This document shows positions 1 through 3,000 of a stretch of DNA of 64,000 bases, piece after piece (position 1 is the stretch's first letter; every line of letters begins with the position of its first letter). Source of the DNA: Escherichia coli (GTDB taxonomy: Bacteria; Pseudomonadota; Gammaproteobacteria; Enterobacterales; Enterobacteriaceae); assembly GCF_022846255.1 (NCBI RefSeq), contig NZ_AP025682.1, one strand, 5' to 3'. Made by a program: the position numbers.

Positions 1-3000
1 TGTGTCATTTTCGCCGCGTCTGGGCTACGGCACAGAAGCTGGCGGCAGATGATGACGTCGATATGCTGGTGATTTTAACCGCCTGTTATTTTCACGATAT
101 TGTGAGCCTGGCGAAAAATCATCCGCAACGGCAGCGTTCTTCAATCCTGGCGGCAGAAGAGACGCGTCGCCTGCTCCGTGAAGAGTTCGTGCAATTTCCG
201 GCGGAGAAAATTGAGGCCGTTTGTCATGCCATTGCCGCTCACAGTTTCAGCGCGCAAATCGCCCCCTTAACAACGGAAGCTAAAATCGTCCAGGATGCGG
301 ATCGGCTGGAAGCCCTGGGGGCGATTGGCCTGGCGCGCGTGTTTGCCGTTTCAGGGGCATTGGGCGTGGCGCTGTTTGATGGCGAAGATCCGTTCGCACA
401 GCATCGCCCGCTTGATGATAAACGCTACGCGCTGGATCATTTCCAGACAAAGTTACTGAAATTACCGCAAACCATGCAAACCGCAAGAGGCAAGCAGCTG
501 GCGCAGCACAACGCGCAATTTTTAGTCGAGTTTATGGCGAAGCTCAGTGCCGAACTGGCGGGGGAGAATGAAGGTGTCGATCACAAGGTGATAGATGCGT
601 TTTCACCCGCGGGCTGAGCGCGTGGCCCTAAATGGCTGTAATTATGTTAACCTGTCGGCCATCTCAGATGGCCGGTTAAATCTATGCAGGAAAATATATC
701 AGTAACCGATTCATACAGCACCGGGAATGCCGTTCAGGCAATGCTGGAGAAACTGCTGCAAATTTATGATGTTAAAACGCTGGTGGCGCAGCTTAATGGT
801 GTGGGTGAGAATCACTGGAGCGCGGCAATTTTAAAACGTGCACTGGCGAATGACTCGGCATGGCACCGTTTAAGTGAGAAAGAGTTCGCCCATCTGCAAA
901 CGTTGTTACCCAAACCACCGGCACATCATCCGCATTATGCGTTTCGCTTTATCGATCTATTTGCCGGAATTGGCGGCATCCGTCGCGGTTTTGAATCGAT
1001 TGGTGGACAGTGCGTGTTTACCAGCGAATGGAACAAACATGCGGTACGCACTTATAAAGCCAATCATTATTGCGACCCGGCGACGCATCATTTTAATGAA
1101 GATATCCGCGACATCACCCTCAGCCATCAAGAAGGCGTGAGTGATGAGGCGGCGGCGGAACATATTCGTCAACACATTCCTGAACACGATGTATTACTGG
1201 CCGGTTTTCCTTGTCAGCCATTTTCGCTGGCTGGCGTATCGAAAAAGAACTCGCTCGGGCGGGCGCACGGTTTTGCCTGCGATACCCAGGGCACGCTGTT
1301 CTTTGATGTGGTGCGCATTATCGACGCGCGTCGTCCGGCGATGTTTGTGCTCGAAAACGTCAAAAACCTGAAAAGTCACGACCAGGGTAAAACGTTCCGC
1401 ATCATCATGCAGACGCTGGACGAACTGGGCTATGACGTGGCTGATGCAGAAGATAACGGGCCGGACGATCCGAAAATCATCGATGGCAAACATTTCCTGC
1501 CGCAGCACCGTGAACGCATCGTGCTGGTGGGTTTTCGTCGCGATCTGAATCTGAAAGCCGATTTTACCCTGCGTGATATCAGTGAATGTTTCCCTGCGCA
1601 GCGAGTGACGCTGGCCCAGCTGCTGGACCCGATGGTCGAGGCGAAATATATCCTGACGCCGGTGCTGTGGAAGTACCTCTATCGTTATGCGAAAAAACAT
1701 CAGGCGCGCGGTAATGGCTTCGGTTATGGAATGGTTTATCCGAACAATCCGCAAAGCGTCACGCGTACGCTGTCTGCGCGTTATTACAAAGATGGCGCGG
1801 AAATTTTAATCGATCGCGGCTGGGATATGGCCACGGGTGAAAAAGACTTTGACGATCCGCTGAATCAGCAACATCGTCCACGTCGGTTAACGCCTCGGGA
1901 ATGCGCGCGCTTAATGGGTTTTGAAGCGCCGGGAGAAGCGAAATTCCGCATTCCGGTTTCGGACACTCAGGCTTATCGCCAGTTCGGTAACTCGGTGGTC
2001 GTGCCGGTCTTTGCCGCGGTGGCAAAACTGCTTGAGCCAAAAATCAAACAGGCGGTGGCGTTGCGTCAGCAAGAGGCACAACATGGTCGACGTTCACGAT
2101 AAGGCCACCCGCAGCAAAAATATGCGCGCGATTGCCACGCGTGATACGGCGATTGAGAAGCGCCTCGCCAGTTTGTTAACTGGGCAGGGCCTTGCGTTTC
2201 GCGTTCAGGACGCCAGTCTGCCCGGACGCCCGGATTTTGCCGTTGATGAATATCGCTGCGTGATATTTACCCATGGCTGCTTCTGGCATCATCATCACTG
2301 CTATCTGTTTAAAGTGCCTGCGACTCGAACCGAGTTCTGGCTGGAGAAGATAGGTAAAAATGTTGAGCGCGATCGCCGCGATATCAGTCGCTTGCAGGAA
2401 CTCGGCTGGCGCGTATTGATTGTCTGGGAGTGCGCGTTACGTGGGCGCGAGAAGCTGACGGATGAAGCGCTTACCGAGCGTCTGGAAGAGTGGATCTGCG
2501 GCGAAGGTGCCAGCGCGCAGATCGACACGCAGGGGATACATTTACTCGCTTGATGCGTCCTGAATAACTGGCGCAACTACGGGTTTTGCCGGAAAGAGAT
2601 ATTTTCCCAACGTGACCAGTACCACCGCGAAGACAATTACGCCGAGCGCCAGCCATTCAATCTTCGACAACGTCTCTCCGCCCAGTCCCGTACCCAGCAA
2701 GACCGCGACCACCGGGTTAACGTAAGCGTAGCTGGTGGCGAGAGCCGGACTGACATTACGGATTAAATACATATAAGCGTTGATGGCGATAATCGAACCA
2801 AACAGCGCCAGATAGCCGACCGCAAGGAAGCCTGAAAGGGAAGGAAGCGCCGTCAGTTTTTCACCCGCAATCATCGACGCGATCATTAACACCACGCCTG
2901 CCGCCAGCATCTCAATCGCACCCGCCATCATCCCTACAGGTAAGGTAATGCGCGAGCCATAAACTGAGCCAAACGCCCAGCTAATCGAGCCGATTAAAAT

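Follow-up and report, generated by a model that had tools for sequence, protein, structure and literature searches.

A 20-nucleotide out-of-frame overlap joins dcm and vsr in an Escherichia coli chromosome

We analysed the junction between dcm, which encodes a DNA-cytosine methyltransferase, and vsr, the gene for the endonuclease of very-short-patch (VSP) repair that acts on T:G mismatches, in a stretch of 64,000 nucleotides (nt) of an Escherichia coli genome (assembly GCF_022846255.1, contig NZ_AP025682.1; hereafter the window). The window sequence and the list of its open reading frames (ORFs) show that both genes lie on the plus strand and share the 20 nt at 2083..2102, ATGGTCGACGTTCACGATAA. 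The frame of vsr is +1 relative to that of dcm ((2083-684) mod 3 = 1), and the first 20 nt of vsr double as the final six codons and the stop codon of dcm: the shared sequence reads ...H-G-R-R-S-R-stop in the dcm frame and M-V-D-V-H-D-K in the vsr frame. This is almost certainly the canonical chromosomal dcm-vsr operon junction of E. coli, an arrangement that is already known and ordinary and that has been described in K-12 since about 1990.

A preliminary description of this DNA had placed the vsr ATG (2083) within the last codons of dcm in another frame and had given the overlap as 20 nt at 2083-2102; both the ORF list and the sequence agree, and the coordinates are exact. It had also called the layout the classic one, and indeed the length and the frame of the overlap match the K-12 annotation. 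Its statement that the arrangement is intact holds as well, neither gene having a frameshift or a premature stop and all catalytic motifs being present, while the link that it drew between Dcm methylation and T:G repair is in agreement with the literature on the dcm-vsr operon (PMC4444293, PMC4924334, PMC2715241, PMC12907096). Furthermore, the overlap of the two ORFs is no product of chance: of 5426 complete E. coli genomes 5307 contain the junction, and 59 of 70 loci from other species keep an overlap in the same frame.

Comparison with K-12 and the encoded proteins

In the RefSeq record of K-12 MG1655 the two genes are annotated on the minus strand, vsr at 2030448..2030918 and dcm at 2030899..2032317, which gives an overlap of 20 nt (2030899..2030918). 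In Ecol_881, which is 100% identical to the window over the stretch, dcm lies at 1585..3003 and vsr at 2984..3454 in locus coordinates. Alignment to the K-12 genes, which the preliminary description had proposed as a check, yields 98% nucleotide identity and an identical overlap. In this gapless comparison, dcm is 98.0% identical (28 nucleotide differences, with the amino-acid changes A17V and K149Q) and vsr is 97.9% identical (10 nucleotide differences, with A2V and V53A). The sole difference inside the overlap is a C to T change at 2087, a synonymous one for dcm (GGC to GGT) that produces A2V in Vsr. No frameshift, the defect in dcm that the preliminary description had singled out, was found, and neither gene has an indel or a premature stop with respect to K-12.

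The allele found in the window is a common one. Of the 5307 E. coli genomes having the junction, 1524 (28%) carry its exact 70-nt sequence, and a megablast search with positions 600-2600 recovered the region in 5367 of the 5426 complete genomes. At least 30 genomes are 100% identical over the 600-2600 region, all of them annotated yedJ, dcm, vsr and yedA in this order, and the isolates carrying this identical allele come from humans, poultry, a river and a dolphin. As to the remaining genomes, 59 of the 5426 had no match at all to 600-2600 and 9 had partial coverage; two matches were on plasmids. In NZ_CP114893.1 (strain CM13) 33% of 600-2600 was covered, and a 'hypothetical protein' was annotated in the place expected for dcm. 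We presume that the dcm-negative B/BL21 lineage is behind many of the absences.

The dcm product matches the C-5 cytosine methylase family PF00145 of Pfam (E=5e-77, 259.9 bits, cut-off 22), PF18284 (72.1 bits, cut-off 25) and the NCBIfam model NF007772/PRK10458, 'DNA cytosine methylase' (951.1 bits, cut-off 710), the latter over profile positions 1-471 of 472. C5-methyltransferases are defined by a series of motifs, among them I (FxGxG, S-adenosylmethionine (AdoMet) binding), IV (PCQ, with the catalytic Cys), VI (ENV), VIII (QxRxR) and X (GN.V). Window Dcm has motif I as FAGIGG (at 93), motif IV as PCQPFS (at 176, with Cys177) and motif VI as ENV (at 224), as well as motif VIII as QHRER (at 274), motif IX as RRLTPRE (at 400) and motif X as GNSV (at 435). 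Cys177 and ENV show no variation across the homologues from 66 species. With 99.6% amino-acid identity to K-12 Dcm, the protein would be expected to methylate the inner C of CCWGG.

The vsr product matches PF03852 of Pfam (E=8e-39, 131.8 bits, cut-off 27) and TIGR00632 (180.1 bits, cut-off 97.85), and it aligns with the E. coli Vsr structures 1CW0, 1VSR and 1ODG in the PDB with E=1.6e-105. Over the aligned residues 3-156, V53A is the single difference between the window protein and the 1CW0 chain. Residues D51, H64, C66, H69, H71, C73, D97 and C117 are all present and are invariant across 81 homologues; Phe67, Trp68 and Trp86 are present too. We take Asp51 and His69 to be the catalytic residues, Cys66, His71, Cys73 and Cys117 to be the zinc ligands, and Phe67, Trp68 and Trp86 to be the residues that intercalate. 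Given its 98.7% amino-acid identity to K-12 Vsr, window Vsr is predicted to nick 5' of the T in T:G mismatches within CTWGG/CCWGG.

Variation of the junction in Enterobacteriaceae

Species-representative genomes were scanned with the Vsr protein, which yielded 80 Enterobacteriaceae loci with Vsr identities of 72-96%. For each locus the end of dcm was located by walking the dcm frame to its first stop. An overlap in the +1 frame was found in 59 of the 80 loci, that is, in 59 of the 70 in which dcm flanks vsr. The 20-nt form predominates, with 49 loci from Escherichia, Citrobacter, Salmonella arizonae/diarizonae, Enterobacter, Lelliottia, Trabulsiella and others, and it persists in 49 species while Vsr identity falls from 96% to about 76%. 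The other +1 overlaps measure 17 nt (4 loci), 23 nt (3 loci), 14 nt (2 loci) and 35 nt (1 locus), the start codons of the 14-, 17- and 23-nt classes having been reassigned to the nearest ATG or GTG. In 6 loci, from Cedecea, Dryocola, Enterobacter sp. Ag1 and others, the genes are separated by a short gap of 10-35 nt that contains a GGAG-type element. In 5 loci, all from Buttiauxella (L041, L042, L049, L050 and L078), the distance between dcm and vsr is of about 0.9-1.0 kb. Finally, 10 loci, from Kosakonia, Phytobacter and Pseudescherichia vulneris, show no dcm match in the flank, which is mostly of 3 kb and for one locus is too short to judge.

Some of the loci of other layout deserve a description of their own. 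The gap of Buttiauxella L041 (2125-3001), the sole one inspected, holds a minus-strand ORF of 172 amino acids with a signal-peptide-like N-terminus; because this ORF intervenes, vsr cannot be translationally coupled to dcm there. An intact vsr adjoins yedA, and nothing resembling dcm lies in the 3 kb upstream of it, at L031, L032, L034, L035, L039, L044, L061, L063 and L067, and these approximately nine orphan-vsr loci belong to Pseudescherichia vulneris, Kosakonia, Phytobacter and relatives. Within this group, the upstream neighbour of vsr at L031 (3001-3498) is a divergent minus-strand porin gene, and in several of the orphan-vsr upstream regions a CCAGG is found some 30 nt ahead of the vsr ATG. 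In Klebsiella indica (L028, 2941-3020) vsr and a 20-nt 'Dcm tail' are kept together with a remnant of dcm (a tblastn match to residues 297-347), and the sequence upstream is unrelated. The locus looks as though dcm had been deleted and vsr retained.

Variability by codon position was then compared across 50 distinct junctions of the 20-nt class, taken at the species level. Upstream of the overlap, variability at dcm codon positions 1/2/3 is 0.238/0.189/0.368, the pattern of the dcm frame. Downstream of it, variability at vsr codon positions 1/2/3 is 0.004/0.040/0.357, the pattern of the vsr frame. Within the overlap the values for vsr codon positions 1/2/3 are 0.091/0.011/0.143, again the vsr pattern; dcm-frame position 3 is here the least variable (0.011), which is the inverse of a coding signature. 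The last six Dcm residues take 16 forms in the 50 sequences and the first seven Vsr residues take 8, which differ mainly at residues 2 and 6. Since variability in the overlap follows the vsr frame, the comparison shows selection on the Vsr N-terminus, with the Dcm tail as a drifting passenger. Selection on the Vsr N-terminus also fits the published observation that deletion of the first 14 Vsr residues lowers both endonuclease and repair activity (PMC2715241). In the Shine-Dalgarno core of the same alignment, a purine-rich GAG, the G at -10 (column G51) is invariant and the A at -9 (A52) is conserved in at least 90% of the sequences.

Expression, coupling and alternative readings

According to the mechanism that we favour, Dcm would methylate the inner cytosine of CCWGG, deamination of the resulting 5-methylcytosine would produce a T:G mismatch, and Vsr would nick 5' of the T, after which a short patch would be resynthesised and the C restored. 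The vsr gene would have no transcription unit of its own and would be read from the dcm mRNA, on which ribosomes would start at ATG 2083 by means of the AAGAGG located within the last dcm codons (2071-2076). The efficiency of vsr translation would then depend on ribosomes translating dcm. Co-transcription and the dependence of Vsr on dcm translation are taken from the literature. Indeed, dcm and vsr are reported to form one operon (PMC4924334, PMC12907096), in which dcm overlaps vsr in part, and VSP repair of T:G in CTWGG/CCWGG is reported to protect Dcm sites in coordination with MutS/MutL (PMC2715241). Furthermore, according to the statement in PMC4444293 that cites Dar & Bhagwat 1993, a nonsense mutation in codon 45 of dcm (dcm-6) removes vsr activity as well, which argues for vsr expression that depends on the translation of dcm.

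Several observations weigh against this reading. First, several genera have vsr without the overlap or without dcm altogether. This implies that the overlap is not required for Vsr function, and across the species compared it appears conserved yet not obligatory. Second, a simple consensus scan of positions 1-3380 of the plus strand found no sigma-70-like promoter, be it upstream of dcm or elsewhere. A promoter and terminator scan of 1-3700 gave counts at or below the shuffle expectation, and from the dcm start to that of vsr a consensus scan of the plus strand yielded one weak terminator-like match (973-986) and no promoter-like site; these scans are uninformative. Third, the base at -7 of the dcm ATG is changed from G to T with respect to K-12, which could alter the efficiency of dcm translation. 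Fourth, Vsr position 53 (window 2240) is Val in 72 of 81 homologues and Ala in 2 of 81, and V53A sits just two residues away from Asp51, a catalytic residue. V53A is nonetheless carried by the at least 30 E. coli genomes that are identical over the 2-kb stretch.

The alternative that survives best concerns the origin of the overlap. In this account the ancestral order was a dcm stop codon, a spacer with a Shine-Dalgarno sequence and the vsr ATG, and a lost or shifted stop extended Dcm by some 7-10 codons into vsr; Vsr translation would start independently at a ribosome-binding site of its own, and the length of the overlap would have no function. Just such an order is found in Cedecea, Dryocola, Enterobacter sp. 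Ag1 and others, in which the dcm stop lies 10-35 nt before the vsr ATG with the GGAG-type element between them. That the Dcm tail drifts (16 variants among 50) under substitutions that follow the vsr frame only, that overlaps of 14, 17, 20, 23 and 35 nt all occur, and that vsr persists without dcm in Kosakonia, Phytobacter and Pseudescherichia also speak in its favour. The conservation of the 20-nt form in 49 species over the whole range of Vsr identities given above speaks against it, as does the loss of vsr activity caused by an early dcm nonsense mutation, in so far as PMC4444293 relates it from Dar & Bhagwat 1993. We regard an incidental origin as quite possible, while leaning somewhat towards the view that the overlap is no mere by-product; being an account of origin, it is compatible with a coupling that was exploited later. 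A stronger version holds that in the Escherichia-Citrobacter-Salmonella-Enterobacter clade the 20-nt overlap is a frozen accident and not an adaptive coupling, with a functionless, drifting Dcm tail and a Vsr that can be selected in the absence of Dcm; the approximately nine orphan-vsr genomes hint at such a Dcm-independent role. Nothing in this version is particular to the window. We entertain it tentatively and think it rather unlikely.

Coupling could also be brought about by an mRNA hairpin, the stem of which (about 2054-2070 with 2092-2109) would enclose the Shine-Dalgarno sequence, the ATG and the overlap and would be opened only by ribosomes finishing dcm. The minimum-free-energy fold of 2030-2130 is indeed a single long imperfect hairpin holding these three elements. 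Its stability is ordinary, however (z = -1.35, with 21 of 200 shuffles folding at least equally well), and the RNAalifold consensus does without it, retaining only a downstream stem of 5 pairs that shows no covariation. Over the 50 species sequences 72% of the cells pair, compared to 25-44% in slid controls, but this contrast is inflated, since the structure comes from one of the sequences in the alignment. Similarly, two columns have changes on both sides of a pair, but both are wobble positions that are unpaired in 22-30 of the 50 sequences, and the inner helix pairs in 32% of the cells. With an unremarkable z-score, no place in the consensus and equivocal pair counts, a hairpin that sequesters the Shine-Dalgarno sequence is unsupported, and we consider it improbable.

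Coming back to the reading of an intact and coupled gene pair, the strain is predicted to methylate CCWGG and to perform VSP repair, and the prediction that it is Dcm-positive is a sound one, because the catalytic motifs of the intact gene are preserved and the differences from K-12 fall mostly at variable positions. Among the 66 species, Dcm position 17 is Val in 34 and Ala in 18, and Dcm position 149 varies between K, R, H and Q. Position 2 of Vsr varies between A, T, V, M and L. It could be argued that the genes are intact and the strain is nonetheless phenotypically Dcm-negative or VSP-deficient owing to regulatory or missense changes (G to T at -7, Dcm A17V/K149Q, Vsr A2V/V53A). The 150 nt upstream of dcm do contain three differences from K-12, the one at -7 among them, and V53A lies beside the catalytic region and is rare among species. 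Against this, the Val at Dcm position 17 is the majority state and position 149 is a variable one, every catalytic residue is intact, at least 30 independent isolates share the 2-kb region at 100% identity, and the junction allele is carried by 28% of E. coli genomes, as a functional allele under purifying selection would be. We therefore give a silent defect of this kind very little credence. In the 64-kb window the observed/expected ratios under a maximal-order Markov model are 0.75 for CCWGG, 0.60 for CTWGG and 0.45 for CTAG. The stronger depletion of CTWGG is in the direction of the published idea of erosion by VSP repair, although CCWGG is under-represented too and the window is small. 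Such depletion would mirror the history of the species, not of this strain, and it was not taken as evidence.

Lastly, that Vsr starts elsewhere, making the overlap longer or absent, is barely credible and is ruled out by the cross-species comparison, even though no stop interrupts the vsr frame in the 54 codons before ATG 2083 (ORF 1921..2553, from a TTG), which offer GTG or TTG starts, and an in-frame ATG stands at codon 14 (Met14). Amino-acid conservation in the vsr frame starts exactly at ATG 2083, where an ATG or GTG is found in most of the 80 homologues, and the 60 nt before it fit the dcm frame alone (position 3 = 0.368). Loci that are orphan or do not overlap have a stop or non-coding DNA just upstream (10-35 nt before the ATG in the genera without overlap), and the stretch 1921-2082 appears to be non-coding in the vsr frame. 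RefSeq annotates the equivalent start in K-12 and in Ecol_881, and the 1CW0 chain begins at residue 2. An internal start at Met14 is further at odds with the lowered activity of Vsr lacking its first 14 residues (PMC2715241).

Neighbourhood, significance and related systems

The features of the window are listed in Table 1. With yedJ upstream and a convergent yedA downstream, the context of the pair is the same as that annotated in K-12 and Ecol_881. The tail-to-tail overlap of vsr and yedA is likewise found in K-12, the record of which places the end of yedA at 2030459 and the start of vsr at 2030448. The small RNAs (sRNAs) DsrA and C0465 and the tRNA cluster also fit this E. coli chromosomal neighbourhood.

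Table 1. Coordinates of the dcm-vsr junction and of neighbouring features in the window (CDS, coding sequence; aa, amino acids)
Feature	Position	Strand	Description and source
dcm CDS	684..2102	+	ATG start, TAA 2100-2102, 472 aa; DNA-cytosine methyltransferase
vsr CDS	2083..2553	+	ATG 2083-2085, TGA 2551-2553, 156 aa; very-short-patch repair T:G mismatch endonuclease
dcm/vsr overlap	2083..2102	+	20 nt; sequence reading and script
Shine-Dalgarno-like AAGAGG for vsr	2071..2076	+	within dcm codons, 6 nt 5' of ATG; direct reading
vsr 3' end/yedA 3' end, tail-to-tail overlap	2542..2553	+/-	12 nt; ORF list and script
yedJ, HD-domain phosphohydrolase ORF	63..617		upstream of dcm; ORF list and Pfam, name from K-12/Ecol_881 annotation
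yedA, EamA transporter ORF	2542..3462	-	convergent with vsr; ORF list and Pfam
DsrA sRNA	7688-7774		Rfam
tRNA Gly(GCC)-Cys(GCA)-Leu(TAA) cluster	41153-41454		ARAGORN
C0465 sRNA	59664-59741		Rfam

A perfect 17-nt palindrome, GGCCATCTCAGATGGCC, with 7-bp arms and a 3-nt centre, is located at 657-673 in the 66-nt spacer between yedJ and dcm, ending 11 nt before the dcm ATG, and is identical in K-12. It could be the stem of a yedJ terminator, a translational hairpin or an operator.

DNA of this strain would be expected to carry 5-methylcytosine at CCWGG, which matters for cloning, for Dcm-sensitive digests and when transforming hosts with methyl-dependent restriction, and VSP repair should dampen the C-to-T hotspots at CCWGG. 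The practical value of the finding is limited, and it does not extend the understanding of the system. The comparative survey offers a tidy view of how the junction varies in Enterobacteriaceae, with only the Vsr frame constrained inside the overlap; its by-products (the overlap-length classes, the drift of the Dcm tail, the orphan vsr genes and the Buttiauxella insertion) are minor and not specific to the window.

The closest known system is the dcm-vsr operon of K-12 (b1961-b1960), which has the same yedJ-dcm-vsr-yedA synteny, the same 20-nt overlap in the +1 frame, the same AAGAGG Shine-Dalgarno sequence and the same protein lengths (472/156 aa), and from which the window departs by the 28 + 10 nucleotide differences and the changes in Dcm (A17V, K149Q) and Vsr (A2V, V53A) discussed above. 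The K-12 operon is reportedly associated with the work of Sohail et al. 1990, Hennecke et al. 1991 and Dar & Bhagwat 1993. More broadly, dcm-vsr resembles the translationally coupled operon pairs joined by ATGA or TAATG, in which the downstream start and its Shine-Dalgarno sequence lie inside the upstream coding sequence on a shared mRNA. The usual overlap in coupled bacterial gene pairs is of 1 or 4 nt, whereas that of dcm-vsr is of 20 nt and places the dcm stop well downstream of the vsr start. The same logic, in which a nickase of the Vsr family offsets the deamination of 5-methylcytosine at the sites of a methyltransferase, is found in V.Ngo/V.Nme of Neisseria, encoded next to m5C methylase genes, and in VsrA/ScmA of Caulobacter (PMC12907096). 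These systems, likened here by description and not by sequence, have other target sequences, and their linkage ranges from adjacent to unlinked, the latter in Caulobacter.

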